Assembly: GCA_002441265.1 (NCBI GenBank)
Contig: DJVQ01000036.1
Coordinates: 37,057 to 101,056 of the forward strand
Length of the DNA stretch: 64,000 nt
Direction: 5' to 3'
DNA from: Syntrophaceae bacterium UBA6252
GTDB taxonomy: Bacteria > Desulfobacterota > Syntrophia > Syntrophales > UBA6807
The position numbers and the translations under genes were made by a program. Below the pieces are notes generated by a model, which saw only the letters and a list, made by a program, of their open reading frames with translations, was not told the origin of the DNA and did no database searches. Position 1 is the stretch's first letter. Each line of letters starts with the position of its first letter. Shown here piece after piece: positions 25,005 to 52,889 of this stretch.

Positions 25005-25540
25005 TTGTATCACAGGCGGTGGGGGACCGTCAATTTCCCCGAGTCAGCTTTTCCTTGACTTGGCGGGCTTTTTTCTGTATGCCGAAGACGTTACACAATC
25101 CCCGCCATAATAAATTTAGGACATTCGGAACTGATCGAACACTCCCGTTTCCAGGGAACGGCTGGACTCGGGACATAGCGTTGGAGGAAAGGTGACTCCT
25201 TTCGGATTCGTCCCTGTGGTCCGTCATCGAGCCTTTTTGTGTCCGTTACTCCCCGTGACGCCGACCGTCCCCCTTTATTCCCTGAAATCCGAAATCTGTG
25301 CGCAAGCACCTCCATCCAAGTGCTTCCGGGAAGACCTGCATCATGAGAAAGGCTTTCATCCCGCGGGGAGCAAACCCGCCCCGCGGAAGGAAATCCCCGG
25401 GTTTGGGAAGGAGGTGACAGGCGTCGCGTGATGACATCAGGGGGATGTCCGCCGTTCCCCCCGTTCCAGGAAACAAGGGAAATCGTGACAGAACAGCGGA
25501 CGATTGATTTTTCAGAACGCGAATGTATTAGGAGGTGATT

Positions 25541-26941
25541 ATGTTATCCGGTATCGGCCGCTTTTTTGCGGAAAAATTCAGAAGATGGCTTCCTGACTCG
25601 TTTATTTTCGCTATTTTGCTGACCTTTCTCGCGGCAATCATGGCGCTCCTGTTCGTGAAGGCGACGCCTCACGCCATCGTTCAGGGATGGTACAAGGGGT
25701 TCTGGATGCTCCTGGGCTTCGCCATGCAGATGATTCTCATCCTCGTTACGGGATACGCCATCGCCATATCCCCTCCGGCGGAGAAGTTCCTCAACTGGCT
25801 CGCGGAACGGGTAAAGAGCCCTGTCGCCGTATACGCCGTCGTGACGTTCATGGGCTGCGTCTTCTCCCTCATCAGTTGGGGCTGGATCGTCCTCACGGCG
25901 GTCCTGGGGAGGGAACTTGCGAAGAGGGTGAAGAAAGTGGATTACAGGCTTCTGGCCGCCTGCGTCTACACGGCGTTCATCCCGTGGCACGGCGGACTGT
26001 CCGGTTCGATCCCCCTCGTCCTCAACACGCCGGAAAACTTTCTCATCAAGGCCAAGGTCCTCGGGGAGACCATCCCCACGTCCCTGACCCTTCTGAGCCC
26101 CATGAACATCGTCTGCAACCTGGCGTTTCTCATCGCTCTTCCCGCCCTGATGGTCATGATGCGGCCCTCCGATGAGCATGTGACGGAATTTTCCGACATG
26201 CTCGACGAGGAGCACAAGTTCGCGAAACCCGTTACCGTGGCGGATGAGGCCGCGTCCCTGAACATGAAGGACAAGAACCTTTCCGACCTCCTGAACAACA
26301 GCGTGATCCTTCAGGTCCTCATTGTTCTCATGGGCGCGTGGATCATCGTGGAGCACTTCTACGGCAAGGGTTTCGACGTCAACCTGAACATCATGAACTT
26401 CCTGTTCATCATCGTGGGGATGCTCTGCCACAAAACGCCCCTCCGTTACCTGATCGCCATGAAGAGGGCCTGCAGCAACGTTTCCGGCATCGTTCTCCAG
26501 TTTCCCTTCTATGCCGGCATCATGGGGATCATGATGTACACGGGTCTCGGGAAGGCCATCGCCGCCTGGCTCGCGGGCTTCGCGACGGTCGGCAGCTACC
26601 CCTTCATCTGCTTCATCATCGGGGGATTCGTGAACATCTTCATCCCCTCGGGCGGCGGCGAGTGGGCCGTGGTCGGCCAGCCGATCATCGAGGCCGCGAG
26701 GACCCTGGGCGCCACCCTGTCCCCGGACCAGCTGACGGCGTTCATCTCCCGCTCCAGCATGGCCATCGCCTACGGCGACGCGTGGACGAACATGATCCAG
26801 CCCTTCTGGACCCTGGCGTTCTTCCCCGTCATCGCGGCGGGGACCAAGATGCAGGCCAGGGACATCATGGGATACACCTTCGTGTCGCTGATCGTTGCTT
26901 TCTTCGTGTTTGCCATCTGCGTCACGTGGCTGCCCGTCTAA
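25541..26941 (+). CDS. atoE: Short-chain fatty acid transporter AtoE family
   Basis: The ATG lies 5 nt after AGGAGG. The multi-TM protein has RWLPDSFIFAILLT, QFPFYAGIMG and PSGGGEW blocks, colinear with E. coli AtoE as I recall it. Confidence 0.9.
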   Translation: MLSGIGRFFAEKFRRWLPDSFIFAILLTFLAAIMALLFVKATPHAIVQGWYKGFWMLLGFAMQMILILVTGYAIAISPPAEKFLNWLAERVKSPVAVYAVVTFMGCVFSLISWGWIVLTAVLGRELAKRVKKVDYRLLAACVYTAFIPWHGGLSGSIPLVLNTPENFLIKAKVLGETIPTSLTLLSPMNIVCNLAFLIALPALMVMMRPSDEHVTEFSDMLDEEHKFAKPVTVADEAASLNMKDKNLSDLLNNSVILQVLIVLMGAWIIVEHFYGKGFDVNLNIMNFLFIIVGMLCHKTPLRYLIAMKRACSNVSGIVLQFPFYAGIMGIMMYTGLGKAIAAWLAGFATVGSYPFICFIIGGFVNIFIPSGGGEWAVVGQPIIEAARTLGATLSPDQLTAFISRSSMAIAYGDAWTNMIQPFWTLAFFPVIAAGTKMQARDIMGYTFVSLIVAFFVFAICVTWLPV

Positions 26942-27092
26942 AAACGTTTTCTTCCGTCCGGACCCGGGGCCCGCGTTCCTGCGGGCCCCGGCTTCCCGGG
27001 CCGGTCTCCCGCGGCCGGATCCCGCGATCCGGCGGCCCCGTCCCGCGAAAAAAAAGAAACCGGAAGCCGGCTTGAAAGAAGCCGCCGTCTTT

Positions 27093-27253
27093 GACGAACT
27101 CGTAAAAGACAAGACACCCCTTTTTTCTAACGGCAAAGGAAAAAGCTCCAGAGGCAAGGCGCCCGAATCGCGACGACCGAGGCGTACTTCCGGTACGCCG
27201 CAGGGACGAGGGATGAAGGGGAACGCAGGATATGGGGCTTTTTACGAAACCGC
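27093..27253. repeat. Rep-A interspersed repeat, full copy
   Basis: GACGAACTCGTAAAAG ... GGGGCTTTTTACGAAACCGCC. Core and hairpin GGCGTAC-TTCCG-GTACGCC (27181-27199) are conserved. Confidence 0.8.
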
Positions 27254-27351
27254 CCCTCTTGACAAGAGGAGGGCGTTCCCTTACGAAAGGGAACGGGGCG
27301 GTTCGCCCGGGGGGCTTTGGGCGCCCGCCCGGAAACGGAACAGGAGGGAAT

Positions 27352-28137
27352 ATGACGCGAAGACGATTCATCGATTTAAGCATCAGCATCGAACCCGCCC
27401 TTCCGAGCGATCCTCCGATGATGATTCCCGAAGTGGAGTACGTCGGCCACGAGGAGGGCGCGGAGCAGATGAAGTCCTTCTTCCCGGGGCTCGTCCGGGA
27501 GCAGCTCCCCGGAGGCCTGGGGTGGGCCCTGGAATTCCTCCGGCTGACCTCCCACAGCGGAACGCACCTGGATGCCCCGTATCACTACCATCCTACAATG
27601 GACGGGGGAAGCCCGGCTCTCACGATCGACGAGATCCCCCTCGACTGGTGCTTCGGCAACGGCGTGGTCCTGGATTTTTCCCGCAAAGGGGACGGCGAAC
27701 GGATCACTGCGGCGGACCTGAAGGAGGAACTTGAAAGGATCGGCTACCGGATCAGGCCGATGGACATCGTTCTCATCCGGACCGGCGCCGACGCGGCCTG
27801 GGGAACGCCGGCCTACCTGACGAAGGGGGCCGGGATGGATCGGGAAAGCACCCTGTACCTGCTGGACCAGGGCGTCAGGGTGGTCGGCATCGACGCCTGG
27901 AGCTGGGACCGGCCCCTTCCTTTCCTGGCGGAGGAATTCCGGAAAACCGGCGACCCGAAGGTCGTCTGGGAAGCACACTTCGCGGGAATCGAACGGGGAT
28001 ACTGTCACATGGAGAAAATGGCGAACCTTGCGGCGATCGGCAGGCCCTTCGGATTCACCGTCTGCTGTTTCCCCGTCAGGATCAAGGGGGCGAGCGCCGG
28101 GTGGGTGCGGCCGGTGGCCATCATCGAGGAGGAATGA
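27352..28137 (+). CDS. Cyclase-family metal-dependent hydrolase (kynurenine formamidase-like)
   Basis: 261 aa from the ATG after CAGGAGGGAA. It carries the HSGTHLDAPYH metal-binding motif. Confidence 0.85.
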   Translation: MTRRRFIDLSISIEPALPSDPPMMIPEVEYVGHEEGAEQMKSFFPGLVREQLPGGLGWALEFLRLTSHSGTHLDAPYHYHPTMDGGSPALTIDEIPLDWCFGNGVVLDFSRKGDGERITAADLKEELERIGYRIRPMDIVLIRTGADAAWGTPAYLTKGAGMDRESTLYLLDQGVRVVGIDAWSWDRPLPFLAEEFRKTGDPKVVWEAHFAGIERGYCHMEKMANLAAIGRPFGFTVCCFPVRIKGASAGWVRPVAIIEEE

Positions 28138-28141
28138 AATC

Positions 28142-30250
28142 GTGAAGAAGTTTTTCTGTCCCGAATCCGTCGTAATCATCGGCGCCCCGGGGAAAACCGG
28201 CGTCGGTTCGTTCAACAACGTGGAAATGATGATCCGCTATGGTTACGGTGGACGGATCTATCCCGTCAACCCGAAGGTCCGTGAGATCTGCGGCCTGAAA
28301 TGCTATCCGTCTGTTCTGGAGGTGCCGGAGGCGGCCGACGTCGCCGTCATCTCCGTCGGCCGGGACCGGGTGATCCCCCTGTTCCTGGAGTGCGCCCAGG
28401 CGGGGATCCGGCGGGTGGTGGTCGTCACCCAGGGATTCGGCGACGCCGACGAACGGGGGAGAACGCTTCAGCAGGAACTCGTTTCCCTGGCCCGGCGGCA
28501 CCAAGTCCGGATCGTCGGACCGAACACCATGGGGATTGTCAACAACTACAACCGGTTTACGACCAGTTTCGTCGATCTTCCTTACCACGAGGATTTTTCC
28601 CCCGTTTCGCTCATCGCCCAGACCGGTTTCATCCAGGTCGCGTCGAAGGATTACGCATACCGTTGGTGGGGGAAGGCCCTGGACATCGGGAACGCGGCGG
28701 ACGTCCATTTCGCCGACGGGCTCCGTTACTTCGGGGACGACCCGGAGACGGAAGTGATCGCCCTCCACATGGAAGGGATCGAGCGGGGAAGGGAATTTCT
28801 CGATCTGGCGTCGGAAATAACGAGAAAGAAACCCATCGTCGTTCTCAAGACGGGAAGAAGCCGGGCGGGGGCGAAGGCGGCCCTTTCCCATACAGGCTCC
28901 CTCACCGGAGAGGACGCCGTGTTCGAAGCCGCCTTCGACCGGGCCGGGATCCTCCGCGTCCGGGACACGGCGGAACTGAGGGACACCCTCCGGGCGCTCG
29001 TGTGCATGCGGGAAATGAAAGGGCCTGGCATCGGCGTCATCACCGTCACGGGCGCCGGCGGCATCATGGCCATCGATGCCTGCGAGGAAAGGGGAATCGG
29101 GATGGCGCCCCTGCCGGAGGGCCTGTCGGATCGGCTCAGGGCCGGGATGCCCGAATGGCTGCACGTCGGAAATCCCATCGATATCTGGCCGATCAGCATG
29201 ATCGGGGGGAATTATTCCGGACCCGTCCGGACCGCCCTGGACGGCATGCTCGCTTCTCCCGACATTCACGGGGTCCTTCTCATCACCCCGGCGCTGAGGT
29301 CGTCCCTCCATTCCGACATGTCCGATCTCACCGGGCTTGTGGCGGAAGCGCGGAAGAAGGCGGGAAACGACAAGCCGATCGCGGTCTTTCCTTACGCCGA
29401 CGAGAGCGGCCGGGCCCCGGGCGACTACGAGCGCATTCGGGGCGTCGCCGCCTTCCCCTCGGCGGAGGAGTGCGTGAGGGGCCTTGCCGCGTGCTTCCGG
29501 TACCACGGGATCCGGAATCGCCGGATTCCCTCCGTGGAGCGGCTCGAAGCGGACGCCGGCCGGGCGGAACCCCTCGTCGCGAAGGGGCGAAGGGAGGGGC
29601 TTCTCCTGGGGGAGGACGCACTGGCGCTTCTCGCCGCGTTCGGGATTCCCGTGGCGCGGGGAGGAATTCTGGGGACTTCCGGGGAATGGGAGGCCCTGTC
29701 CGGGGGCATCCCCTATCCGGTCGTGCTGAAGGTCCATGGCCGGCATTTCCTTCACAAGAGCGAATGGGGAGGCGTGCTCACGGGGATCGCCGACGGAGAC
29801 TCCTTTTCCCGGGCATGGGCGACGCTGGAGGCGCGAGTCCGGGAGAAGGCGCCCGGCGTTCCCTTTGAGGGGTTTCAGGTCCAGGAGGCGATCGCCGGCA
29901 CGGAGATTCTTTTCGGGATCCGGCGGGATCCCCAGTTCGGGCCGGTCGTCGCCTGCGGTTTCGGCGGGATTTACACGGAGGTTTTCAGGGATGTGGCCCG
30001 GCGGATCGCGCCGATCGACAGGGAGGAGGCCCGGGAGATGCTCCGCTCCCTGAGGATGTACCCCATTCTCCAGGGGATTCGGGGACGGAAGGGTGCGGAC
30101 CTGGAACAACTCGCGGACGTTCTTCTCCGGATCTCCCGTCTCGCCCTGGAAATCCCCGATCTCGTCGAGATGGACGTCAATCCCTTCATCTGCGGGGAAA
30201 CGGTTTCCGCGGCCGTGGACGCCCGAATGCTCTGGAAGGAGGGTTCCTGA
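28142..30250 (+). CDS. ADP-forming acyl-CoA synthetase (fused alpha-beta; CoA-binding + ligase-CoA + ATP-grasp)
   Basis: The GTG lies 4 nt after the cyclase stop, with GAGGAGGA upstream. SVVIIGAPGKTGVGS (CoA-binding), the phosphohistidine loop ALSHTGSLTG, and a C-terminal ATP-grasp (YPVVLKV...HKSEWGGV). Confidence 0.88.
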   Translation: MKKFFCPESVVIIGAPGKTGVGSFNNVEMMIRYGYGGRIYPVNPKVREICGLKCYPSVLEVPEAADVAVISVGRDRVIPLFLECAQAGIRRVVVVTQGFGDADERGRTLQQELVSLARRHQVRIVGPNTMGIVNNYNRFTTSFVDLPYHEDFSPVSLIAQTGFIQVASKDYAYRWWGKALDIGNAADVHFADGLRYFGDDPETEVIALHMEGIERGREFLDLASEITRKKPIVVLKTGRSRAGAKAALSHTGSLTGEDAVFEAAFDRAGILRVRDTAELRDTLRALVCMREMKGPGIGVITVTGAGGIMAIDACEERGIGMAPLPEGLSDRLRAGMPEWLHVGNPIDIWPISMIGGNYSGPVRTALDGMLASPDIHGVLLITPALRSSLHSDMSDLTGLVAEARKKAGNDKPIAVFPYADESGRAPGDYERIRGVAAFPSAEECVRGLAACFRYHGIRNRRIPSVERLEADAGRAEPLVAKGRREGLLLGEDALALLAAFGIPVARGGILGTSGEWEALSGGIPYPVVLKVHGRHFLHKSEWGGVLTGIADGDSFSRAWATLEARVREKAPGVPFEGFQVQEAIAGTEILFGIRRDPQFGPVVACGFGGIYTEVFRDVARRIAPIDREEAREMLRSLRMYPILQGIRGRKGADLEQLADVLLRISRLALEIPDLVEMDVNPFICGETVSAAVDARMLWKEGS

Positions 30251-30658
30251 ACGGACAATGCAATTGACAGATTTCACATTTCTTTATATCGTAAGCTGAA
30301 ATCCTGCCGGGGGGCACCGTACGACATGACAGGAAAGAATCCGGCGGAGGATGCTTTTCGGATCCGTGTCGCTGCAGGAAACAATACAACTTCGGAATAA
30401 AGGGGTTCCGCCGGGTCGTCGCGCGCTTTCGGAGCAGGAGAAGTCATCGTCGGCTTGAGGCGGAGGTTTCCGTCCTCCGGGGACGGCTGGAGAACAGGCA
30501 TGCACCGGTTCCGGCCCGATGGACCGGGCGGGCGTTCTTCATGAACCGCCGCGGAGGAAGAATTCACTGGGAAGGGGGTGATGCATCGATTTCAGGAACA
30601 TTCGGGATTTCCTCCGTGGATGGATCCTTCAACAGGTGAATGCAAAAGGAGGTAGGCC

Positions 30659-32008
30659 ATGATCAGAGCAATGGGGCGCGTCTTTGACAAATGGGCGCGG
30701 AAATGGATGCCGGATCCGATGTTGTTCGCGATCCTTCTTACCTTCATTACGTACCTCTTGGGGCTCATCCTGACGGACAGCGGCCCCTTCCAGATGATCC
30801 AGCACTGGTACAAGGGTTTCTGGGAACTCCTTTCCTTCGCAATGCAGATGTGCCTGATTCTCGTCACCGGGCACGCCCTGGCGACGTCTCCCCTTGTACG
30901 AAGGTGGATCGAGCATCTGGCGGAGATTCCCAAGCACCAGGCCGGGGCGATCTTTCTCGTCGGCTTTACCGCGGCGATCGCGTCGTGGATCAACTGGGGC
31001 CTCGGGATCATCGTGGGAGCCCTCATGGCCCGCGAGGTCGGCAGGAGCGGCCAGCTCCGTGGGATTCCCATGCACTATCCCCTTCTCGGCGCGGCCGGCT
31101 ATGCCGGGTTCCTCACCTGGCACGGCGGTCTTTCCGCTTCGGCTCCTCTCCTGGTGGCCACGGATAAGCACTTCCTGGTGAACGAGATCGGAGTCATCCC
31201 GTCCCGCCTGACCCTTTTCAGCACCATGAACATCGTCATTTCCATCGTACTCATCCTGCTCATTCCCCTGGTGTGCATGCTCATGGCCCCGAAGAACAAG
31301 GAGGAGATGGAGACCATCGTCGATGTGGACCCGGACCTGGTGAAAAAAGAGGAGGTCAAGGTCATTCCCCGGGAAAAGATGGTTGTGGCGGACAAGATCG
31401 AAAACAGCGTCGTCATCTCCGGGATCATCGGCATCGCCGGCATGATTTATGTCGTCTGGTTCTTCTACACCAAGGGATTCGCCCTTGACCTGAACATCGT
31501 GAACTTCACGTTCCTGTTCCTGGGCATCCTCTTCCAGCGAACCCCGATCAACTACATCCGGGCCGTCAGCGAAGGCGCCAAGGCCTGCGCCGGGATCATC
31601 GTCCAGTTCCCCTTCTACGCGGGAATCATGGGGATGATGAAGTACTCCGGCCTCGTGGCCATCATCGCCAACTGGTTCGTCGTCATCTCCACGGCGACAA
31701 CCTATCCCGTCTTCACGTTCCTCAGCGCCGGCCTGGTGAACCTCTTCGTTCCCTCCGGCGGCGGCCAGTGGGCGGTTCAGGGGCCCATCATGGTGAAGGC
31801 GGCCCAGGCCATGAACTTCGACATGAACAAGACGATCATGGCGGTGGCCTACGGCGATGAATGGACGAACATGCTCCAGCCCTTCTGGGCGCTGGCCCTC
31901 CTGGGGATCACCAGGCTGAAGGCCCGTGAAATCGTCGGGTACACCATGGTGGTTCTCGTGGTGAGTGCCATCGTGTTTATCCTCGGACTTCTGTATCTCC
32001 CCGTGTGA
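30659..32008 (+). CDS. atoE: Short-chain fatty acid transporter AtoE family (second paralogue)
   Basis: 449 aa with RBS AAAGGAGG. KWMPDPMLFAILLT, QFPFYAGIMGMM, PSGGGQWAVQGP and AVAYGDEWTNMLQPFWALA blocks. Confidence 0.92.
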   Translation: MIRAMGRVFDKWARKWMPDPMLFAILLTFITYLLGLILTDSGPFQMIQHWYKGFWELLSFAMQMCLILVTGHALATSPLVRRWIEHLAEIPKHQAGAIFLVGFTAAIASWINWGLGIIVGALMAREVGRSGQLRGIPMHYPLLGAAGYAGFLTWHGGLSASAPLLVATDKHFLVNEIGVIPSRLTLFSTMNIVISIVLILLIPLVCMLMAPKNKEEMETIVDVDPDLVKKEEVKVIPREKMVVADKIENSVVISGIIGIAGMIYVVWFFYTKGFALDLNIVNFTFLFLGILFQRTPINYIRAVSEGAKACAGIIVQFPFYAGIMGMMKYSGLVAIIANWFVVISTATTYPVFTFLSAGLVNLFVPSGGGQWAVQGPIMVKAAQAMNFDMNKTIMAVAYGDEWTNMLQPFWALALLGITRLKAREIVGYTMVVLVVSAIVFILGLLYLPV

Positions 32009-32037
32009 GAACGGCACGGGGAAATTAACGGCCGTAT

Positions 32038-32070
32038 GGGGGCGCCCGTTCCGAGACGGAGGGCGCCCCC
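32038..32070 (+). terminator. GC hairpin after atoE-2
   Basis: GGGGGCGCCC-N13-GGGCGCCCCC followed by a weak T-tract. Confidence 0.4.
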
Positions 32071-32224
32071 TGATCTTGCCGGAAACCCGCATCCCGGCGG
32101 GAAGGGAATTTTCACCTTGACCCGCGGCACCCCCCGAGGCTATAGTTTCCTCGGGGCAGATGATGGGGACGAGGGCCGGTGCGGAATGCGGGATGAGGGG
32201 ATTCCACCCGGAAAGGAAGCGTTC

Positions 32225-34168
32225 ATGGAAGAGAAACCTTCCCGTCCCGGGGAGGAGAGGTATTGGCACAGCCTTCAGCGTGAGATCAACCAACGGAAGA
32301 TCGAGGAACTGAAGGCCCTTTACCCTGAAAAATTCGTCCCCGAGAACACGTTCTTCCAGAACATCCACCGGGGAGACCGCATTTTCATCAGCACGGGCTG
32401 CGGCGAGCCCCGGTCCCTGGTGGATGCGCTCATCCGCTATGTCGACGGGCACCCCAAGTCGTTTTTCGACGCCGAGGTGCTTCATGTCTGGACGCTCGGC
32501 GTCGCCCCCTACACGGACCAGAGATTCAAGTCCAATTTCCGGCACAACTCCTTCTTCGTCGGCGACAACACCCGCGATACGGTGAACCGGGGAATGGCCG
32601 ATTACACCCCCATCTTCCTGTCCGAGGTCCCCAGCCTCCTGTACCGCCGCATCGTTCCCATCGACGTGGCTCTCGTCCAGACCTCGTTTCCGGACAAGCA
32701 CGGGTACATGAGCCTCGGCGTCAGCGTGGACATCGACAAGGCGGCGGTGGAATGCGCCCGGATCGTCATCGCCCAGGTGAATTCCTGCATGCCCCGGGTG
32801 CACGGGGACGGGTTCATCCACATCCGGGACGTGAACTTTGTCTATCCCTTCGAGGAACCGCTTCTGGAATACCACACCGGCACCGATTCCGAAGAGATCC
32901 AGAAGATCGGCCGCTACGTGGCGCGGCTCGTTCAGAACGGGGACACCATCCAGGTGGGGTACGGGAGCATCCCCAACGCCATTCTGAAAAGCCTGAAGGA
33001 GAAGAAGGATCTCGGGGTCCACACGGAGCTCATCGGCGACGGCATCGTGGAACTCATGAAGGATGGGGTCGTCACCAACAGCCGCAAATCGCTGAACCGG
33101 GGAAAAACCATCGCCGCCTTCTGCATGGGGGCGCCGGAAACTTACGAATATCTTCACGACAACCCCATGATCGAACTGCGGACCATCGACTACACGAACG
33201 ATCCCCTCGTCATCGCCCAGCACGAAAACATGACGGCCATCAATTCGGCCCTGGAAATCGATCTGACGGGACAGGCAAGCGCCGAATCGATCGGCAAGGT
33301 GTTCTACAGCGGCATCGGAGGGCAGGCGGATTTCATGCGCGGGGCCGTCCTCGCGAAAAACGGGAAAACGATCCTGGCCATGCTTTCCACGGCGTCCGGG
33401 GGGGAGATCTCCCGGATCGTCCCATTCCTGAAGGAGGGCGCCGGGGCCACCCTGAACCGCGGCGACATCCATTACGTGGTCACCGAGTACGGGATCGTGT
33501 ACCTCCACGGCAGAAACATCCGGGAGCGGGCCATGGAACTCATATCCATCGCTCATCCCCGGTTCCGGCCCTGGCTCATCGAGGAGGCGAAGAAAGCGGG
33601 TCTCATCTACCGCGACCAGAGCTACATTCCGGGAAAGAAAGGGGAGTACCCTGAAAGTCTCGAGGGCTACCGGACGACGAAAACGGGCATGAACATCTAT
33701 CTCCGGCCCGTCCGGATCAGCGACGAGCCGCTCCTCAAGGATTTTTTCTATTCCCTTTCCGACAGCAGCCTGTACCGGAGGTTCATCTCCGCCCGGAAGG
33801 ACATCCCCCACGAGCGCCTGCAGGACTTCACCGTCATCGACTATTCGAAGGAGATGGCGATCGTGGCGGTGGTGGACAGGAAGATCCGGGAAACCATCGT
33901 CGGCATGGGACAGTACGGCATCGACGAGCGGACGCACACGGCGGAGGTGGCCTTCGCCGTCCGCGACGACGAGCAGGGCCGCGGCATCGCCACGGAAATC
34001 CTTTCCTATCTCACATACCTGGCAAAGAAGCAGGGCCTCCTCGGTTTCACCGCGGAGGTGCTCGTGGAAAACAAACCCATGCTTCATGTCTTCGAGAAGA
34101 TGGGCTTCGATATGGAGAGGCGGGTGGCCGAAGGGGTCTATGAACTCCGCATGTCCTTCCGTTCCTGA
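32225..34168 (+). CDS. Acetyl-CoA hydrolase/transferase domain fused to a C-terminal Pat-type GNAT acetyltransferase domain
   Basis: 647 aa from the ATG after GGAAAGGAAG. The N-terminal ~480 aa have FISTGCGEP and GIGGQADF blocks of the Ach1/Cat1 CoA-transferase family. The C-terminal ~160 aa (33686-34165) carry the GNAT motif A QGRGIA. Confidence 0.85.
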   Translation: MEEKPSRPGEERYWHSLQREINQRKIEELKALYPEKFVPENTFFQNIHRGDRIFISTGCGEPRSLVDALIRYVDGHPKSFFDAEVLHVWTLGVAPYTDQRFKSNFRHNSFFVGDNTRDTVNRGMADYTPIFLSEVPSLLYRRIVPIDVALVQTSFPDKHGYMSLGVSVDIDKAAVECARIVIAQVNSCMPRVHGDGFIHIRDVNFVYPFEEPLLEYHTGTDSEEIQKIGRYVARLVQNGDTIQVGYGSIPNAILKSLKEKKDLGVHTELIGDGIVELMKDGVVTNSRKSLNRGKTIAAFCMGAPETYEYLHDNPMIELRTIDYTNDPLVIAQHENMTAINSALEIDLTGQASAESIGKVFYSGIGGQADFMRGAVLAKNGKTILAMLSTASGGEISRIVPFLKEGAGATLNRGDIHYVVTEYGIVYLHGRNIRERAMELISIAHPRFRPWLIEEAKKAGLIYRDQSYIPGKKGEYPESLEGYRTTKTGMNIYLRPVRISDEPLLKDFFYSLSDSSLYRRFISARKDIPHERLQDFTVIDYSKEMAIVAVVDRKIRETIVGMGQYGIDERTHTAEVAFAVRDDEQGRGIATEILSYLTYLAKKQGLLGFTAEVLVENKPMLHVFEKMGFDMERRVAEGVYELRMSFRS

Positions 34169-34281
34169 CGAAGGCTCCCGCCGAGGAAAAAGACGGCTCC
34201 GGAACCTCTCCGGGGTGCCGGATGTCTTTCCGGTAAAAGGGATTCTCCGGAATCCTTCGACGTTATGAAGAGGTCTGTTTC

Positions 34282-36411
34282 ATGAATCGCAAAGATGAAG
34301 ACGGAAACATCCGCCGTCTTTTCGAACCCCGTTCCATCGCGGTCGTCGGGGCATCGGCCGACCCGGGGAAGATCGGGTACAAGATCCTGGAGAACATCCA
34401 CTCCGGCGGTTACGCGGGGAGGATCGCCCCCGTGAATCCCCGGGGCGGCGAAATCCTGGGGCTTCCCGTTCATGAGAACGTGGAGGCCGTTCCGGGCGAG
34501 GTCGATGTCGCGGTCATCACCGTGCCGGCGAAATTCGTCCGCGCGGCGGTGGAGGATTGCGGGCGGAAGGGGGTGAAGTACCTCCTCGTCATCACCTCCG
34601 GATTTTCCGAAGTGGGAAATCTCCGCGGGGAACGGGAAGTGGTCTCCCTGGCCCGGGAAGCGGGCATGCGGATCGTCGGCCCGAACATGTTCGGAATCTA
34701 TTCCGCCGCCGCGTCCCTGAACGCGACCTTCGGCCCTTCGACGATCCGGCCCGGGGGCGTGGCCATCATCAGCCAGAGCGGGGCGCTCGGTCTGGCCATG
34801 ATCGGAAAGACGTACACGGAGAACATCGGTCTTTCCGCCATCTGTTCCGTGGGGAACAAGGCGGACGTGGACGAGGCCGACCTCCTCGAATACCTCGTCC
34901 CCCAGGAGGAGACGAAGGTCATCCTCATGTACATCGAGGGCGTCCGGGAGGGCGAACGGTTCATCAAGGCCCTGAGGGAGGCGACGGCGGTGAAACCGGT
35001 GATCGTCGTCAAGTCGGGGCGCTCCGCCCGGGGGGCGGCCGCCGCGGCGTCCCACACGGGATCCCTGGCGGGATCGGACCGGGTCTTCGACGCCGTGGCC
35101 AGGCAGTGCGGCGCGCTTCGGGCGGAGACCGTCAAGGACGCCTTCGACTGGTGCCGCTACGTTTCCGTGAATCCCCTTCCCCGGGGGGAGGAAACGGTGA
35201 TCATCACGAACGGAGGGGGAATGGGCGTCCTTGCCACCGACGCCTGTGAGAAATTCGGCATCCACCTCTACGACGACCTGGAGGTCCTGAAGAACATCTT
35301 TTCCCCGGTGACCCCCGAATTCGGGTCCACGAGAAATCCCGTGGACCTGACGGGAGGGGCGGAGGCGGGGGACTACGACCGGGCTCTCGAAGCCGCCCTG
35401 GAACGGGACGACGTTCACTCCGTCATCGCCCTGTACTGCGAGACCGCCGTGTTCGACGCCGGGAAGCTTCCCGGCATGGTCCATGAAAATTACCGGAAAT
35501 ACCGGGAGAGGGAAAAACCGGTCACGTTTTCGCTGTTCGGCGGCGAGTCCACGGAGGCGACGGTTTCCCGCCTTTCCAGGGAACAGGTTCCCGTGTTCAG
35601 CGACGTGTACGAGGCGATTTCCCCGCTGGGAGCGGCCTATGCCTGCCGCCGCTACCGGGAAAGCCGGAAGGAGGCTTTCGACGTTCCCGCCGTCGACCGG
35701 GAGGCCCTGCGGGGCATCATCGGGCCCATCCAGGCGGAGGGCCGTCATTTTCTTCTGGCCGGGGAGGCCCAGAAACTGATGGGAATCAGCGGCGTCCCCG
35801 TCCCCCGGACGCGGCTGGCGTCCACCCTCGGGGAGGCCGTGGAGGCTTCCAGGGACATCGGGTATCCCGTGGTCATGAAGGTCGTTTCCCGGGACATCGT
35901 TCACAAGAGCGACGCCGGCGGAGTGGCCCTCGATCTGGACAATGAAAAGGAGGTCATGGACGCCTACGAGGCGATCCTGCAGAACTGCAGGACCCGGGTC
36001 CCCGGCGCCAGGATCCAGGGCGTCGAGGTCGCCGAAATGGTCAAAGGGGGGACGGAAATGATCGCGGGGGCGAAGATCGATCCGTCCTTCGGCCCCATCG
36101 TCATGGTCGGCCTGGGAGGGATTTACGTGGAGGTGATGAAGGATGTCGCCTTCCGGTCCTATCCCCTGGACCGGGGGGAAGTGCTTTCCATGATCCGGGA
36201 GATCCGGTCCTATCCGCTTCTTCTCGGCGTCCGGGGCGAAAGCCCGAAGGACATCCGCACCCTGGTCGATACGATCCTCCTTCTGGGGGAAATGGTGTTC
36301 CAGTGCCGGGAAGTGAGCGATATTGAAATCAATCCCCTGGTCGTCTACGACGAGGGCCGGGGAGCCAGGGCCGTGGACGTACGGGTCCTGCTCGCGAAAG
36401 AAGAGAGGTGA
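34282..36411 (+). CDS. ADP-forming acetyl/acyl-CoA synthetase (fused alpha-beta)
   Basis: 709 aa. SIAVVGASADPGKIGYKI, the phosphohistidine loop AASHTGSLAG, and an ATP-grasp (GYPVVMKVVSRDIVHKSDAGGV). Confidence 0.9.
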   Translation: MNRKDEDGNIRRLFEPRSIAVVGASADPGKIGYKILENIHSGGYAGRIAPVNPRGGEILGLPVHENVEAVPGEVDVAVITVPAKFVRAAVEDCGRKGVKYLLVITSGFSEVGNLRGEREVVSLAREAGMRIVGPNMFGIYSAAASLNATFGPSTIRPGGVAIISQSGALGLAMIGKTYTENIGLSAICSVGNKADVDEADLLEYLVPQEETKVILMYIEGVREGERFIKALREATAVKPVIVVKSGRSARGAAAAASHTGSLAGSDRVFDAVARQCGALRAETVKDAFDWCRYVSVNPLPRGEETVIITNGGGMGVLATDACEKFGIHLYDDLEVLKNIFSPVTPEFGSTRNPVDLTGGAEAGDYDRALEAALERDDVHSVIALYCETAVFDAGKLPGMVHENYRKYREREKPVTFSLFGGESTEATVSRLSREQVPVFSDVYEAISPLGAAYACRRYRESRKEAFDVPAVDREALRGIIGPIQAEGRHFLLAGEAQKLMGISGVPVPRTRLASTLGEAVEASRDIGYPVVMKVVSRDIVHKSDAGGVALDLDNEKEVMDAYEAILQNCRTRVPGARIQGVEVAEMVKGGTEMIAGAKIDPSFGPIVMVGLGGIYVEVMKDVAFRSYPLDRGEVLSMIREIRSYPLLLGVRGESPKDIRTLVDTILLLGEMVFQCREVSDIEINPLVVYDEGRGARAVDVRVLLAKEER

Positions 36412-36416
36412 GTTTC

Positions 36417-37439
36417 ATGGAACGGGTTATCGTGGCCTCGACGAGGAAAAGCGCCGGAAAGACCAGCCTGATCGTGGGAATGGCGAAGGTCCTGGGAGCG
36501 CCTTTTTCCTATATCAAGCCTTTCGGGGACCGGTTGTTCTACCGGAAGAAAAGGCTCTGGGATTACGACTCCGCCGTTGTGACGCAGGTCTTCGGCCTTT
36601 CCACGGACCCGGAGGAGATGAGCATCGGGTTCGAGCATGCCAAAGTCCGATACATGTACGACGAGAACTCCATCAAGGAGAAACTCCTCGACATGACCGG
36701 ACGGGGGGAGGGGCGGGCTTTCATCGAGGCGGGGGGCGATCTCTGCTCCGGCGCCTCGGTCCACCTGGACGCCCTCTCCCTGGCGAGACTGGGAGCGGGC
36801 AAGCTGATCCTGGTCCTGAGCGGCGGGGAGGGCCCCGTCATGGACGATCTCACCTTCCTGAAACGTTCCGTGGAGCTGGGTGCCGTATCCGTGGCAGGCG
36901 TCATCGTCAACAAGGCGGAGGACCGGGACGATTTCGAAAGGGTCTTCAGCAAGGAGATCGAGGCCATGGGGTTCCCCCTTCTCGGGATCGTTCCCTTTAT
37001 CCGGGAACTGACCTATGTACGGGCGGCGATCCTGGCGGAGCGGCTTTTCGTCAAGGTGATCGCCGGCGGGGAGGGACTGGGAAACGTCATCCGGAACGTC
37101 TTCATCGGCGCCATGAACGCCCACGCCGCCCAGCGGGACCCCCTTTTCAGGCGGGAAGGGAAGCTGCTCATCACGAGCGGGGACCAGAGCGACATGATCG
37201 TGGCCGGCCTGGAGAGCGACACCGCCTGCATTCTCATCACGAACAACATCGTTCCACCCCCGACGATCCTGGCCCTCTCGGCGGAGCGGAACATCCCCCT
37301 CCTCCTGGCGTCCGGCGACACCTACCAGGTGGCCAGGGAAGTGGACTGCTTCGAACCCATTCTGGCCCGGGGAGACGAGGATAAAGTCGCGTTGATGGAA
37401 GATACCGTGAAAAAATATGTCCGAATGGACATCTTCTGA
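36417..37439 (+). CDS. Phosphotransacetylase N-terminal-like protein (BioD-like P-loop + DRTGG domain) lacking the PTA catalytic domain
   Basis: The ATG lies 5 nt after the ACD stop. [21 protein letters not shown]-loop-like N-terminus. C-terminal [28 protein letters not shown] resembles a DRTGG domain. Confidence 0.72.
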
Positions 37440-38726: not shown

Positions 38727-39719
38727 GTGGACGTAATAGAAAAAGGAGTCGGTAGGATCTTTACGGATCCCGATGCGGACAAAGCGCGGGAATTTTTCAG
38801 ACACAAGAGCCGCGCCCTGGTGAGCAAGCTGACGACCGTAAAAGAGGCGGTGAAGGAACTGATCAAGGATGGGGACTATATTTCCGTCGGCGGTTTCGGC
38901 GCCAACCGGGTCCCCATATCGGTTCTCCATGAAATCCTGAGACAGAAGAAAAAAGACCTCGGCCTCGCCGGGCACACGGCGACCCACGACTTCCAGATCC
39001 TCTCCGCCGGGAAGGTGTTCAACCGGTGCGATATCGCCTACATCATCGGGCTCGAGGCGAGAGGTCTGTCCCCCAACGCGAGGGCCTACATGCAGAGCGG
39101 CGAGGTGGAAGTCACCGAGTGGACGAACTACACCATGTCCGCCCGTTACAAAGCAGCCGCGGCAGGCGTCTCCTTCCACCCCATCCGCAACATGATGGGG
39201 ACGGACACGTTCAAGTACAGTGCAGCCGCGGTCTCGGAGTGCCCCTTCACGGGCCAGAAGTACACCCTCGTCCCCGCCCTCTATTCCGATGTGGCCGTCA
39301 TCCATGCGCATGAGGCGGACATCTACGGGAACTGCCGGGTTCGGGGCATCCTCATGTCCGACTGGGACATTGCACGCTCCTCCAAGAAGGTCATCATCAC
39401 CTGCGAACGGCTCATCCCGAACGACGAGATTCGGAGAGACCCGACCATGACCTTCATTCCCTACTACTGTGTCGACGCCGTCTGTGAAGTTCCCTACGGA
39501 AGCTATCCCGGCAACATGTACCAGGAGTACTTCTCCGATGAAGACCATCTGCGGGAATGGCTGAAGGTGGAGAAAGATCCCGAAGCGTTCAAGAAGTTCC
39601 TCGACAAGAACATCTACGGTGTCCAGGACCACTTCGAGTACATCGAGAGGAACGGCGGGATCCGCAAGATGCAGATGCTGCGGCAGAAAGAGTGGCTGTT
39701 CAGAGGCGCCAGACAATAA
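38727..39719 (+). CDS. CoA-transferase subunit A (glutaconate CoA-transferase GctA-like)
   Basis: 330 aa with a GTG start after GAGGAGGAGG. DGDYISVGGFGANRVPISVLHEILRQ resembles the family I CoA-transferase alpha N-terminus. Confidence 0.86.
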   Translation: MDVIEKGVGRIFTDPDADKAREFFRHKSRALVSKLTTVKEAVKELIKDGDYISVGGFGANRVPISVLHEILRQKKKDLGLAGHTATHDFQILSAGKVFNRCDIAYIIGLEARGLSPNARAYMQSGEVEVTEWTNYTMSARYKAAAAGVSFHPIRNMMGTDTFKYSAAAVSECPFTGQKYTLVPALYSDVAVIHAHEADIYGNCRVRGILMSDWDIARSSKKVIITCERLIPNDEIRRDPTMTFIPYYCVDAVCEVPYGSYPGNMYQEYFSDEDHLREWLKVEKDPEAFKKFLDKNIYGVQDHFEYIERNGGIRKMQMLRQKEWLFRGARQ

Positions 39720-39737
39720 CGAGGAGGTAAGGAGACA

Positions 39738-47815: not shown

Positions 47816-47894
47816 CGGGCGTTTCCTCCTTTCAGGGCCCTTTGGGCGCATCGGCCGGACGGCGTTGCGAACGGCCGAAAACACTTTTCTTAGA

Positions 47895-47940
47895 CTTTTT
47901 TTACGGCTTCGTCAATTTCGTATCGTTTTTTTACGAAGGG
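47895..47940. repeat. Rep-A terminal-motif fragments
   Basis: CTTTTTTTACGGCTTCGTCA and GTTTTTTTACGAAGG resemble Rep-A ends. The second contains the TAA stop (47931-47933) of the CoA-transferase::GNAT gene. Confidence 0.35.
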
Positions 47941-49829
47941 GACGGACCGGCCGGTTCCCCCGAATCGGTCTCCTCCGGGAAGGTCAGGGTCAGTTCGTAC
48001 ACGCCCGCGTTTACCATGGCCTGTAACGGGAAGGGCGCCTTTTCGAAAACCTTCAGCATGGCCTGGTTGTCCGTGAGGACGTCCGCCCGGAATCCCCGGA
48101 CGTTTCGTTTCCTGGCGATGTCGATGAGGAGGTGGAACAGAAAGGAGGCGATGCCGATCCCCTGGTACTTCTCGTCGACGACGAAGGCCGTGTCGGCATG
48201 GCCGGAACCTTCCAGCCGGACGTACCGCCCCTCGGCGATGATGCGCTCCATTCCCGATTCCTCGATCGTGCCGATGACGGACATGGTTTTTTCGTAATCC
48301 ACATTCACGTAGGCCTGCATCTTCATGTGCGGCATCGTCTTGATGCGGCTGAAATACCGGTAGTAGACCGCCTGGTCGGAAAACCGGTAGAAAAGCCGCC
48401 GCATCTCGTCCACGTCGGAGGGCTTGATGGCCCGGAAGCGTACCGTCAGGTCGTCACGGAAGGTGCGGACGACATGGATGTCCTCCGGGTAAAGCCGGCC
48501 CGACCCGGTGACGTAGGCCTGGTCCCGGTAAAGAATGTTGGCTTCCCGGGCTTCCTCCACGAGCCGTTCCCGGTCGTCGGGGTGGGCGATGTCGATGAGG
48601 GCCAGCGCCCGTTCCCGGACCGTTCTCCCCCTGAGGGAGGCGACGCCGTGGTCGGTGATGACGAAGTCGAGGGACTCCCGGTAGGTGAACTGGTTCGGGT
48701 AGGCGTCCGCGGAGAGGAGGATGTTGGATTTTCCCTCCAGGTTCCGGCTCGGCAGGGCGACGATCGTTCTCCCTTCCCTGGAATGGATGGCCCCGGCCAC
48801 CAACTCCTGGACTTCCCCGGGGCCGGCGGTGACGTTTCCTTTTCCCGTGTGGAGCGCCATGTTTCCCGTGAGATCGATCTTGCGGGCGGGGATTACGGCC
48901 ATGAACCGGTCGTTCAATCCCACCCCCCGCGGATCGGTCACCACGTCGATTCCCTGAAACTCGATCAGGGGGTTCCTGTGGAGCCAGTCCATGAGTTCCT
49001 TGGTTCCCTGGGCGTAGGATACCAGGGTCTTTCCCCTGAAGAACCGTTTGTTCCGGTTGGTGACGGCACCGCTTTCGATGAGGTCCATGAGGGGATCGGT
49101 GCACAGCAGGGAGTGGATTCCCAGGTCCCGTTTCCTGGAGAGCGGTTTCACCAGGGCCTCGAAAAGGGCGCCCACGAGAAAGCACAGACAGCTTCCATCC
49201 TCGATTACCGATGCCACATTGTGGGCAAGCCGTTCGAAGGGTTCGTCCGTCTTCCACCGGGGGAAATAAAAAGGGGGATCCTCGGAGCGGACGATGAAGT
49301 GGAGGTCGTCCACGTGGACGAGGGTGTCCCCGAACGCAAAGGGGAACTCGTCGCTCACTTCGCCGACGACGAGTTCGGCGTGGTCCATGGCTTGCCTGGC
49401 CACGTCCACCGCAGGGCCGAGACTGCAGTACCCGCGGCTGTCCGGGGGAGTGACCCGGACGAAGGCGGCGTCGAGCCGCACCATCCCGGAACGGAAAAAA
49501 CCGGGGATCCGGGAGAACCGGTAGGGAATGAGGTCGATGCGGCCCGTCGTGATCGCGTCGCTGGCCACCCATCCGGAGAAGAAGGTCTTCAGCCGGTATT
49601 TCTGGGCATATCGCCCGTCCAGGGGGATGGCGTCCCCGAAGCTGAGAAGCTGGATCAGGTCGAGATCCTTGAGGTTGGGAAGCGAGGAGGCCATGAGGTG
49701 CTTGATGAGGGTCCGCGGCTCCGCCACTCCCGTTCCCAGGAAGATGCTCATCCCCGGCTTGATCCTCGAGAGGATCTCTTCCGGCGGGACGGGTTCCTTG
49801 TTCCACTTGGCAAGGTCGTTCTTTTCCAT
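47931..49829 (-). CDS. Acetyl-CoA hydrolase/transferase domain fused to a Pat-type GNAT domain (second paralogue)
   Basis: 632 aa with the same architecture as 32225-34168. The GNAT tail at about 47931-48443 has YQGIGIA motif A and the FRAIKPSDVDEMRRLFYRFSDQAVYYRYF block. Confidence 0.85.
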   Translation of the reverse strand: MEKNDLAKWNKEPVPPEEILSRIKPGMSIFLGTGVAEPRTLIKHLMASSLPNLKDLDLIQLLSFGDAIPLDGRYAQKYRLKTFFSGWVASDAITTGRIDLIPYRFSRIPGFFRSGMVRLDAAFVRVTPPDSRGYCSLGPAVDVARQAMDHAELVVGEVSDEFPFAFGDTLVHVDDLHFIVRSEDPPFYFPRWKTDEPFERLAHNVASVIEDGSCLCFLVGALFEALVKPLSRKRDLGIHSLLCTDPLMDLIESGAVTNRNKRFFRGKTLVSYAQGTKELMDWLHRNPLIEFQGIDVVTDPRGVGLNDRFMAVIPARKIDLTGNMALHTGKGNVTAGPGEVQELVAGAIHSREGRTIVALPSRNLEGKSNILLSADAYPNQFTYRESLDFVITDHGVASLRGRTVRERALALIDIAHPDDRERLVEEAREANILYRDQAYVTGSGRLYPEDIHVVRTFRDDLTVRFRAIKPSDVDEMRRLFYRFSDQAVYYRYFSRIKTMPHMKMQAYVNVDYEKTMSVIGTIEESGMERIIAEGRYVRLEGSGHADTAFVVDEKYQGIGIASFLFHLLIDIARKRNVRGFRADVLTDNQAMLKVFEKAPFPLQAMVNAGVYELTLTFPEETDSGEPAGPSPS

Positions 49830-52574: not shown

Positions 52575-52582
52575 CGAACGCC

Positions 52583-52789: not shown

Positions 52790-52889
52790 CTCTCACTCTC
52801 CCTTCCTTGTCTTGACCGGATCCGGGTTCGGGTTTCCCCAATCCGGCCGCCCGTTCAAAAGGTCATGAAGTCGCTTCCCCGGGAAATCC

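Follow-up and report, generated by a model that had tools for sequence, protein, structure and literature searches.

Can a CoA-transferase fold stand where Pat-type protein lysine acetyltransferases carry an inactive domain resembling an ADP-forming acyl-CoA synthetase (ACD)? This question is raised by a stretch of 64,000 nucleotides from Syntrophaceae bacterium UBA6252 (assembly GCA_002441265.1, contig DJVQ01000036.1, positions 37,057 to 101,056 of the forward strand). Herein, this whole stretch is called the window. It encodes two proteins, copy 1 and copy 2, in which a CoA-transferase-fold domain is followed by a GNAT domain. Both are read here, with a confidence slightly above even, as Pat-like enzymes that acetylate (acylate) protein lysines and in which a CoA-transferase fold replaces the inactive ACD-like domain as partner of the GNAT domain.

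Architecture of the two fusion proteins

Copy 1 is composed of the following elements.

32225..34168, + strand: copy 1 (FUS1), 647 aa, AbfT-type CoA-transferase, predicted to be catalytically competent, fused to a Pat-type GNAT domain
32321..33589, + strand: CoA-transferase domain, aa 33–455 (Pfam PF02550 and PF13336)
33026..33028, + strand: codon of Glu268, the predicted catalytic nucleophile, equivalent to RipA Glu249 (alignment to 3qli/4n8i)
33308..33334, + strand: SGIGGQADF, the G-x-GG-Q/F loop of family-I CoA-transferases, aligned with SG(F/T/V)GGQxDF of solved AbfTs
33590..33676, + strand: conserved linker, aa 456–484, with D464, Q465, Y475, and P476 invariant in the clades of both copies
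33677..34129, + strand: Pat-type GNAT domain, aa 485–635
33944..33946, + strand: codon of Glu574, aligned with PatZ E809 and SlPatA E123 (HMMER alignment to 9it0)
33974..33991, + strand: QGRGIA, the GNAT P-loop, an acetyl-CoA pyrophosphate-binding motif

The initial annotation had described a fusion of a CoA-transferase fold with a GNAT domain at 32225–34168. This is confirmed by the open reading frame (ORF) and by three Pfam domains, namely AcetylCoA_hydro at aa 33–206 (E 1e-46), AcetylCoA_hyd_C at aa 302–455 (E 3e-62), and GNAT models at aa ~491–628 (E 1e-12). The strings cited for it (LRPVRISDEPLL, FISTGCGEP, and GIGGQADF) are all found in the protein. The mechanically called ORF is longer and spans 32036–34168 on the + strand. 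However, a Shine-Dalgarno-like stretch, GGAAAGGAAG, sits ahead of the ATG at 32225, and ~97%-identical metatranscriptome contigs differ from the window by indels at only two sites across 30.4–36.1 kb, single-base insertions at 32037 and 32148. Since both insertions lie upstream of 32225, coding from 32036 is incompatible with them, and the true start is hence likely the ATG at 32225.

The N-terminal half of copy 1 matches solved 4-hydroxybutyrate CoA-transferases and RipA in the PDB at E-values of 1e-86 to 1e-122, with the 4-hydroxybutyrate CoA-transferases 9vag and 3eh7 at 1e-121 over the transferase domain, whereas Ach1/AarC-type enzymes match at just 1e-13 to 1e-20. Because the former values are far stronger, the domain is placed, by sequence, in the AbfT/Cat2/RipA (4-hydroxybutyrate/butyryl-CoA transferase) subgroup within family-I CoA-transferases. 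The earlier description as an Ach1/Cat1-type fold therefore stands as far as a CoA-transferase, and not an ACD-like domain, is concerned; the subgroup is not that of Ach1/Cat1 proper. Enzymes of family I act by a ping-pong mechanism via a glutamyl-CoA thioester (PMC3180442). In RipA, the catalytic residue is Glu249, followed by Val250 and Asn252 (PMC3180442). Glu249 falls in the stretch HTEVLN, which aligns with HTELIG of copy 1 and thus points to Glu268 as the nucleophile of copy 1. In addition, copy 1 has GYG at the position of the RipA gating loop GVG. The two-lobed α/β fold made up by AcetylCoA_hydro and AcetylCoA_hyd_C is found in both copies by Pfam and Foldseek; the catalytic Glu of family I is found in copy 1 only. 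Scores against the NCBIfam equivalogs are low, with 272 bits for TIGR03948 (butyryl-CoA:acetate transferase) against a cut-off of 674.8 and 115 bits for NF053666 against a cut-off of 740. Hence, neither a butyryl-CoA:acetate nor a 4-hydroxybutyrate CoA-transferase function is assigned to copy 1.

The C-terminal part was claimed to be a Pat-type GNAT domain, and this claim is borne out. For the C-terminal 172 aa, the top eight PDB matches are all Pat-type protein lysine acetyltransferases, with E-values of 9e-19 for the GNAT domain of SlPatA, 2e-18 for Escherichia coli PatZ, and 4e-11 to 2.5e-10 for MsPat/MtPat. The PatZ alignment reaches back into the linker ahead of the GNAT domain, to PatZ residue 711; the linker of copy 1 from P476 onward is homologous to PatZ from that residue onward (HMMER alignment). 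The best GNAT outside the Pat type, a phosphinothricin-acetyltransferase–like protein, follows only at 4e-5, leaving a gap of 13 orders of magnitude in E-value, so that a grouping with small-molecule GNATs, which would have spoken against the claim, is not seen among the strong matches. The best NCBIfam model for the tail of both copies is NF058543 (mycobacterial Pat), with RimI (2e-5) and ArsN1 (4e-5) as weaker matches. By Foldseek, the GNAT domain of SlPatA is the closest structure for both copies (TM 0.90, rmsd 2.1–2.2 Å). Glu574 of copy 1 occupies the position of PatZ E809, equivalent to SlPatA E123, which adjoins the acetyl group and is regarded as catalytic (PMC12184503), and QGRGIA conforms to the P-loop definition Q/R-x-x-G-x-G/A (PMC8556138). 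An exhaustive phmmer search with the GNAT tail yielded 3449 cluster representatives at E<=1e-10. Of the best 150 of these relatives, 61 carry CoA-transferase sequence, and many of the 61 are 5'-truncated fragments. The near relatives also include P0384, a Type I Pat made up of ACD and GNAT, and P0315, which is Type II-like with GNAT and CoA_binding.

Copy 2 shows the same order of domains on the opposite strand.

47931..49829, − strand: copy 2 (FUS2), 632 aa, predicted pseudo-CoA-transferase fused to a Pat-type GNAT domain
48549..49802, − strand: CoA-transferase-fold domain lacking the catalytic Glu, aa 10–427
49107..49109, − strand: Leu241 codon, aligned with the catalytic Glu (GIHSLL compared with G[IV]HTE[ML]; pairwise HMMER alignments to four solved AbfTs)
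48801..48827, − strand: AGPGEVQEL, a degenerate remnant of SGxGGQxDF
48030..48464, − strand: Pat-type GNAT domain, aa 456–600
48192–48194, − strand: codon of Asp546 at the catalytic-acid position of the GNAT domain
48147–48164, − strand: P-loop QGIGIA

A second fusion of the same architecture had been noted at 47931–49829. The three Pfam domains are indeed present, on the minus strand and with weaker transferase scores than in copy 1; sameness does not extend to the active site, as the catalytic Glu and the GGQ motif are missing. The AF2 models (pLDDT 80.5 and pTM 0.72 for copy 1; pLDDT 82.2 and pTM 0.82 for copy 2) match AbfT/RipA with their N-terminal parts at TM 0.85–0.88 for copy 1 and 0.81–0.85 for copy 2, and the SlPatA GNAT domain with their C-terminal parts at TM 0.90 each. 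Because the catalytic Glu and SGxGGQxDF are lost while the fold stays, the transferase domain of copy 2 is regarded as a predicted pseudoenzyme: it should be called a member of the fold group by structure, but a pseudo-transferase and not a functional member of family I.

Identity between the two copies amounts to 31% for the transferase domain and 35% for the GNAT domain, and each copy heads its own clade, of which 121 sequences were aligned for clade 1 (copy 1) and 121 for clade 2 (copy 2). The catalytic position is occupied by Glu in 121 of 121 clade 1 sequences; in clade 2, it is Y, L, P, F, T, V, I, S, Q, or A, and E or D in 0 of 121. Likewise, SGIGGQADF is 96–100% conserved in clade 1, and in clade 2 other residues stand in for the Gln and for the second of the two adjoining Gly. 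The catalytic acid of the GNAT domain is E in 116 and D in 5 sequences of clade 1 and D in all 121 of clade 2, which also keeps the P-loop; the Q (93–94%) and the central G (98–100%) of this loop are conserved in both clades. In all, 34 positions are conserved to at least 97% in clade 1 but to less than 60% in clade 2. Of these 34, 29 lie in the CoA-transferase domain (including the gating-loop residues G245 and Y246 as well as E268, S362, G366, F370, and R372) and 3 in the GNAT domain. The transferase domain of clade 1 is ~75% identical across bacterial and archaeal phyla, and the dead transferase domain of clade 2, with its fold predicted to be kept, still shows a mean within-clade identity of 64% and has 52 invariant positions in common with clade 1.

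A comparable pattern is found in 38 diverse full-length fusions, in which the Glu is replaced or GGQ is decayed in several separate lineages and 37 of the proteins have E or D as the GNAT acid. The tree of these 38, which took in the 27 full-length CoA-transferase representatives of the GNAT-tail search, is a star-like neighbor-joining tree with long branches and was used solely to establish that motif loss is not confined to a single lineage; no branching order is read from it. Because the GNAT domain is constant and the transferase chemistry dispensable, the GNAT domain is read as the constant effector and the transferase fold as a variable partner or sensor, which in clade 1 would also be a working enzyme. 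This asymmetry is the strongest internal argument for such a reading. A further variant is seen in P0313 and P0350 (~960 aa each), in which an N-terminal 4Fe-4S dicluster domain precedes a Glu-less CoA-transferase domain and a Pat-type GNAT domain; it may represent a redox-sensing version of the architecture.

Spread, transcription, and gene neighborhood

The fusion is abundant, with thousands of proteins in many separate 50%-identity clusters, and is annotated automatically by the databases under names such as 'GNAT family N-acetyltransferase', 'acyl-CoA hydrolase/GNAT superfamily N-acetyltransferase', and 'bifunctional acetyl-CoA hydrolase/transferase family protein/GNAT family N-acetyltransferase'. 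The search with copy 1 gave 8000 scored matches, of which the best 120 clusters all measure 618–674 aa, are 71–100% identical, and contain all three domains. Taking the best 120 clusters of each copy together, the proteins measure about 620–650 aa and stem from many independent sources, and the three Pfam domains are found throughout, with the sole exception of P0173 (587 aa, no GNAT match). Relatives of copy 1 occur at no fewer than 450 loci of GTDB contigs, with one genome taken per species; the locus analyses rest on the best 80 of these, which are 66–86% identical. The best 80 loci come, among bacteria, from Syntrophales and other Thermodesulfobacteriota, Spirochaetota/Leptospira, Dehalococcoidia, Nitrospirota, cyanobacteria (Lyngbya, Limnospira), and Actinomycetota and, among archaea, from Asgard (Borrarchaeum), ANME-1, Thermoplasmatota, and metagenome-assembled genomes (MAGs) labeled 'Halobacteria'. 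The closest genome is a Syntrophales MAG (L004, 86%), which is syntenic with the window and holds copy 2 ~14 kb away (L081). Clade 2 is narrower: its 63 genomes belong to Syntrophales, Desulfobacterales, and related 'Deltaproteobacteria'/Thermodesulfobacteriota MAGs, plus one MAG labeled Gammaproteobacteria. The survey of taxonomic spread that had been proposed for this architecture thus finds CoA-transferase/GNAT fusions widely distributed over bacterial and archaeal phyla.

The ~97%-identical contigs are present in three anaerobic-digester metatranscriptomes. One of 5681 nt corresponds to 30401–36067 and runs through a short-chain fatty acid (SCFA) transporter gene, the entire fusion, and most of the downstream ACD gene; a second covers 30401–34161. 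Of these two contigs, X14 and X15, X15 crosses the junction between the fusion and the ACD gene, and the fusion ORF is free of indels in both. The chance that the fusion is an artefact of assembly or frameshift, joining two separate genes, is practically nil: it is ruled out by the many clusters, the at least 450 and 63 species genomes, the intact ORF in RNA-derived contigs, and the conserved linker.

The window places the SCFA transporter, copy 1, an ACD gene, and a gene termed PtaN-like in this order, with SOD following.

30659..32008, + strand: SCFA transporter (AtoE/SCFA_trans; Pfam PF02667, E 6e-159)
34282..36411, + strand: ACD2, ADP-forming acyl-CoA synthetase, fused α-β form, 709 aa, with His257 in SHTGS and with HKSD
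36408..37439, + strand: PtaN-like protein, AAA_26 + DRTGG but no PTA_PTB catalytic domain, with a 4-nt overlap with the ACD2 stop

A genuine ACD had been claimed just downstream of copy 1, and ACD2 proves to carry the full set of domains (CoA_binding, Succ_CoA_lig, Ligase_CoA_2, and ATP-grasp_5; Pfam and NCBIfam). All five ACD subdomains are accounted for, with the phosphohistidine motif SHTGS at aa 257 and the second His in HKSD at aa 541. Among the NCBIfam models it fits NF045493 best, that of the ADP-forming 4-hydroxybutyrate-CoA ligase (609 bits against a cut-off of 1300), and all its scores stay under the equivalog cut-offs. As a side observation, the best model of ACD2 and the best solved relatives of the copy 1 transferase domain are both of the 4-hydroxybutyrate type, a lead for which both proteins score below the equivalog thresholds. 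The PtaN-like protein matches the N-terminal half of phosphate acetyltransferase (NCBIfam). Proteins of ~345 aa with AAA_26 and DRTGG correspond to the N-terminal regulatory half of class-II phosphotransacetylase (compare DVU3031; PMC4481167). Synteny of the SCFA transporter with the fusion is limited to 3 of the 80 loci, all in the closest genomes. Inside the cassette of fusion, ACD, and PtaN-like gene, the signal scan gave one sigma-70–like site (32117–32146, 10/12) and one weak hairpin with a poor T tract (34209–34222), neither of them above background.

To describe the neighborhood in general, ORFs were called in all 143 loci and clustered without prior assumptions. The dominant neighbors in clade 1 are an ACD, the ~345-aa AAA_26+DRTGG protein, and a ~650-aa acetyl-CoA synthetase (Acs) of the AMP-forming type. 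Within 6 kb of the fusion, the 77 clade 1 loci counted hold ACD and DRTGG together in 25 cases, ACD only in 4, DRTGG only in 4, Acs only in 16, and all three in 1. By a rough estimate, a gene present at 1–3 copies per several thousand genes would be a chance neighbor within 6 kb in <1% of loci. Where at least 2.5 kb of downstream sequence is available (67 loci), an ACD begins on the same strand at most 1.5 kb downstream in 25, typically a few to a few tens of nucleotides past the fusion stop, and is followed by the DRTGG gene. These adjacent ACDs are 54–81% identical to ACD2, compared with 29–38% for the other ACD paralogs in the same loci; fusion and ACD thus form a specific orthologous partnership. 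The cassette in the order fusion, ACD, PtaN-like gene is found in Syntrophales, Spirochaetota, Leptospira, Dehalococcoidia, and one Thermoplasmatota archaeon.

The DRTGG gene is conserved in about 30 clade 1 loci and is linked to the fusion as tightly as the ACD is. In four loci (L011, L016, L018, L026) it follows the fusion directly, without an ACD, and in Spirochaetota loci (L023, L025, L028, L035) it is duplicated in tandem after the ACD. The motif PKTRSGKIMRR, which surrounds the lysine acetylated by Pat enzymes, is carried by 14 of the 17 ORFs of the Acs cluster, in loci ranging from Asgard and ANME-1 archaea to cyanobacteria and Thermodesulfobacteriota. In clade 2, RlmL, a radical-SAM protein, PurB, NadB, and lipoproteins each occur at 10 or fewer of 57 loci, with no functional theme; RlmL stands directly upstream of copy 2 in the window and in 7 loci.

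Further genes of the window are the following.

21758–23074, − strand: HDAC-type Zn-dependent deacetylase (Hist_deacetyl E 1e-67), ~9 kb upstream of copy 1
25535–26941, + strand: second SCFA transporter, part of a parallel module upstream (25535–30250)
27232–28137, + strand: putative cyclase of the parallel upstream module
28028–30250, + strand: second ACD, with SHTGS present, about 30–38% identical to the cassette ACD group
38727–40508, + strand: two-subunit CoA_trans (AtoDA/glutaconate-type) CoA-transferase, downstream of the cassette
45721–46758 and 46778–47884, − strand: two tandem paralogous lipoprotein-like genes (CsgG/FlgO-like N terminus + TPR), directly downstream of copy 2
49831–51012: RlmL, ending 1 nt before the start of copy 2
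51711–52841, − strand: α-acetolactate decarboxylase with a ~140-aa N-terminal extension, an unusual domain arrangement
56087–57655, − strand: ThyX, 522 aa, with two Thy1 stretches, an unusual domain arrangement
57718–58869, − strand: SfsA (OB + nuclease-like) fused to DUF123, an unusual domain arrangement

The HDAC-type gene, which adjoins a hydantoinase/oxoprolinase-like gene, possibly encodes the eraser of an acylation system. As a conserved eraser it was rejected, since just 3 of the 80 loci have a homolog no farther than 8 kb from the fusion (L004, L058, and L031 from Lyngbya sp. CCY1209, the one isolate among the loci retrieved). The two-subunit CoA_trans transferase adds to the density of acyl-CoA genes; synteny for it is limited to L004, the closest Syntrophales MAG. 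Scans of positions 1–64000 found no tRNA gene and no Rfam family at the gathering threshold. The window has a GC content of 61.5% and a strong GC3 bias (~0.8), which tells real genes from many long spurious antisense ORFs.

Relation to known acetyltransferases and CoA-transferases

Bacterial lysine acetyltransferases are divided into five types by their regulatory domain: an ACD-like domain placed N- or C-terminally, a cAMP-, ACT- or NADP-binding domain, a GNAT domain only, or tandem GNAT domains (PMC8556138, PMC12184503). A regulatory domain of the CoA-transferase type has no place in this classification as given in the literature of 2019–2025. A literature search yielded no paper describing a CoA-transferase/GNAT fusion; subscription-only papers were outside this search, and absence from it is no proof.

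The Type I enzymes Pat of Salmonella enterica and PatZ/YfiQ of E. coli (9it0, 9isq) belong to the same GNAT subfamily as the fusions (HMMER E 2e-18). They share with them the position of the catalytic Glu (E809), the P-loop, and a large N-terminal domain from an acyl-CoA–handling family; herein, the domains of copy 2 and of Pat have both lost the catalytic residue. The link to Acs is likewise shared, for the fusion by gene neighborhood in many clade 1 loci. The N-terminal part differs, being an AbfT-type fold of ~450 aa in the fusions and CoA_binding/Succ_CoA_lig/ATP-grasp of ~700 aa in Pat. CoA_binding, Succ_CoA_lig, and ATP-grasp_5 were not found by Pfam in either fusion, and in the absence of an ACD-like regulatory domain the fusions are members of neither Type I nor Type II. 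A further difference is that the domain of copy 1 still appears catalytically equipped and that a separate, seemingly competent ACD is encoded downstream.

Type II Pat, represented by PatA of Streptomyces lividans (SlPatA; 4nxy, 4u5y), provides the closest GNAT domain by both sequence (E 9e-19) and structure (TM 0.90), and its GNAT structure has been solved in complex with Acs. Its order of GNAT and ACD-like domain is paralleled by the cassette, in which the C-terminal GNAT domain of the fusion is followed by the ACD gene, and this likeness hints at a shared history of neighborhood and fusion. However, GNAT and a dead ACD-like domain form one polypeptide in SlPatA, whereas the GNAT domain of the fusion is joined to a CoA-transferase and the ACD is separate and apparently active. 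The Type III enzymes, i.e. the cAMP-regulated MtPat (Rv0998)/MsPat and the ACT- and NADP-binding variants, have a homologous C-terminal GNAT domain (E 4e-11) and, in the proposed reading, the principle of a ligand-sensing domain that gates it in common with the fusions; their sensor differs in fold, ligand class, and size. In the AcuA–AcsA system of Bacillus subtilis (with AcuB and AcuC), a GNAT is encoded beside its Acs target with a deacetylase nearby, compared with the HDAC-type gene 9 kb away in the window, but AcuA, a Type IV GNAT with a single domain, comes from another subfamily and has no CoA-handling domain fused to it.

On the transferase side, AbfT, Cat2, and RipA (3gk7, 2oas, 3eh7, 9vag, 3qli) are matched by copy 1 over the whole domain at E 1e-101 to 1e-121, including the catalytic Glu, the GYG gating loop, SGxGGQxDF, and the predicted fold at TM 0.85–0.88. 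Unlike the fusions, the characterized enzymes stand alone at ~430–450 aa without a GNAT domain; copy 2 differs from them also by the lack of the nucleophile.

Proposed function and its meaning

How could such proteins work? Copy 1 would be bifunctional, its transferase domain catalyzing ping-pong CoA transfer between acetyl-CoA or a short acyl-CoA and an imported short-chain carboxylate. Together with the SCFA transporter, the competent ACD, and the PtaN-like regulator, it would form a node that interconverts acetate or SCFAs and acyl-CoA. The GNAT domain would read the acyl-CoA state of this node and acetylate enzymes that make or consume acyl-CoA, thus providing a built-in acylation brake. 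In lineages with a neighboring Acs, the target would be the AMP-forming Acs at the lysine of PKTRSGK; in the window, the partner ACD or the PtaN-like protein may be the target, or else AMP-forming ligases encoded at a distance. Ligand occupancy of the transferase-fold domain would gate the GNAT domain, to which the covalent state may add in copy 1. In copy 2, with its transferase chemistry lost, the dead domain would only bind CoA or acyl-CoA and/or scaffold the GNAT domain, much like the dead ACD domain of PatZ. The regulatory domains of Types I and II are inactive and lack the catalytic His (PMC8556138), and in PatZ, acetyl-CoA on the inactive ACD-like domain cooperatively and allosterically opens the GNAT domain and helps to form the Acs pocket (PMC12184503). 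The initial annotation had proposed an acyl-CoA–sensing or acyl-CoA–generating acyltransferase; of these, sensing fits copy 2, whose transferase domain appears catalytically dead yet conserved, and generating could apply to copy 1 only.

Several observations weigh against this proposal. None of ACD, DRTGG, and Acs is found at 27 of the 77 clade 1 loci, several of which lie on short contigs. An AMP-forming Acs with the target motif is absent from the window, where a six-frame scan (SGK[IVLM]xR[RK], Px4GK) gave spurious matches. The neighbors of clade 2 are housekeeping genes and uninformative on targets, as one would expect of a general regulator. Copy 2 has Asp, not Glu, at the catalytic position of its GNAT domain, a conservative change that may well permit activity. 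Metatranscriptome contigs can hold DNA carry-over. No biochemical characterization of any member was found in the literature, subscription-only papers being outside the search, and the strong conservation of the clade 1 transferase equally well fits metabolism as its main job.

This last point leads to a rival explanation that is unlikely but has an appreciable chance: copy 1 would chiefly be a metabolic CoA-transferase (e.g. short acyl-CoA:acetate) paired with the ACD in an ASCT/SCS-like arrangement that conserves ATP or activates SCFAs, and the GNAT domain would be a cis-regulatory appendage that binds acetyl-CoA or auto-acetylates the enzyme or complex, with no separate protein targets. The perfectly conserved active site, a transferase domain ~75% identical across phyla, the tight operon with SCFA transporter, ACD, and PtaN-like gene, and the density of SCFA and acyl-CoA genes in the region all suit it, and Syntrophales rely on ATP conservation from acetyl-CoA to acetate (PMC4992975). 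It leaves unexplained, however, clade 2 and the other Glu-less lineages, where the chemistry is gone and the GNAT acid and P-loop are strongly constrained, as well as the recurrent neighboring Acs with the Pat target motif. There is a rather slim chance that the transferase instead supplies the donor, making a non-acetyl acyl-CoA (butyryl-, propionyl-, or 4-hydroxybutyryl-CoA) from acetyl-CoA and an imported acid for the GNAT domain, so that the enzyme would write the prevailing SCFA onto lysines. The apparent competence of the copy 1 transferase, the co-transcribed SCFA transporter, the conserved linker, and the pTM values of 0.72 and 0.82, which suggest a fixed domain arrangement in the models, are in line with this. 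But it is impossible for clade 2 and other Glu-less lineages, free acyl-CoA pools make channeling unnecessary, and for GNAT pockets of the Pat type, acetyl- and propionyl-CoA are the main known ligands.

A GNAT domain that acts on a small molecule or on protein N termini, with the fusion being a two-step enzyme of a small-molecule pathway, is very unlikely. Fold alone does not tell the substrate class of a GNAT, and RimI and ArsN1 do appear as weak NCBIfam matches; yet every strong match in sequence or structure is a Pat-type lysine acetyltransferase, the near relatives of the GNAT tail have Type I and Type II-like Pat architectures, and an Acs with the target lysine motif recurs as a neighbor. 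A more far-reaching form of the Pat-like reading, which we hold tentatively and as unlikely, with a small chance, concerns clade 1: the balance of free Glu268 and its glutamyl-CoA thioester, set by the ratio of acyl-CoA to free short-chain acids, may gate the GNAT domain, or the transferase domain may turn imported acids into the acyl donors of the GNAT domain.

Read as Pat-like lysine acyltransferases, the fusions fill a clear gap in acetyltransferase typology and come as no conceptual surprise, as GNATs are known to recruit varied sensor domains. They are concentrated where converting acetate and acetyl-CoA into each other is the main energy-conserving step and control by acylation is unstudied, such as in Syntrophales, sulfate reducers, Dehalococcoidia, and spirochaetes, and in ANME, Asgard, and Thermoplasmatota archaea. 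That ACD and PtaN-like partners recur suggests a regulatory complex around the ADP-forming acetyl-CoA synthetase. With active and dead transferases on one scaffold, the family provides a natural series that can show how a metabolic enzyme turns into an allosteric sensor domain. If the more far-reaching proposal for clade 1 is true, an enzyme active in metabolism would at the same time serve a protein-acylation writer as its sensor or donor generator, and the external SCFA pool would be coupled directly to lysine acylation of the acetate enzymes that conserve ATP (ACD, Acs) in syntrophs, Asgard, and ANME archaea. The Glu-less clades would then represent a later specialization into pure sensors, in parallel to the dead ACD domain of Pat.

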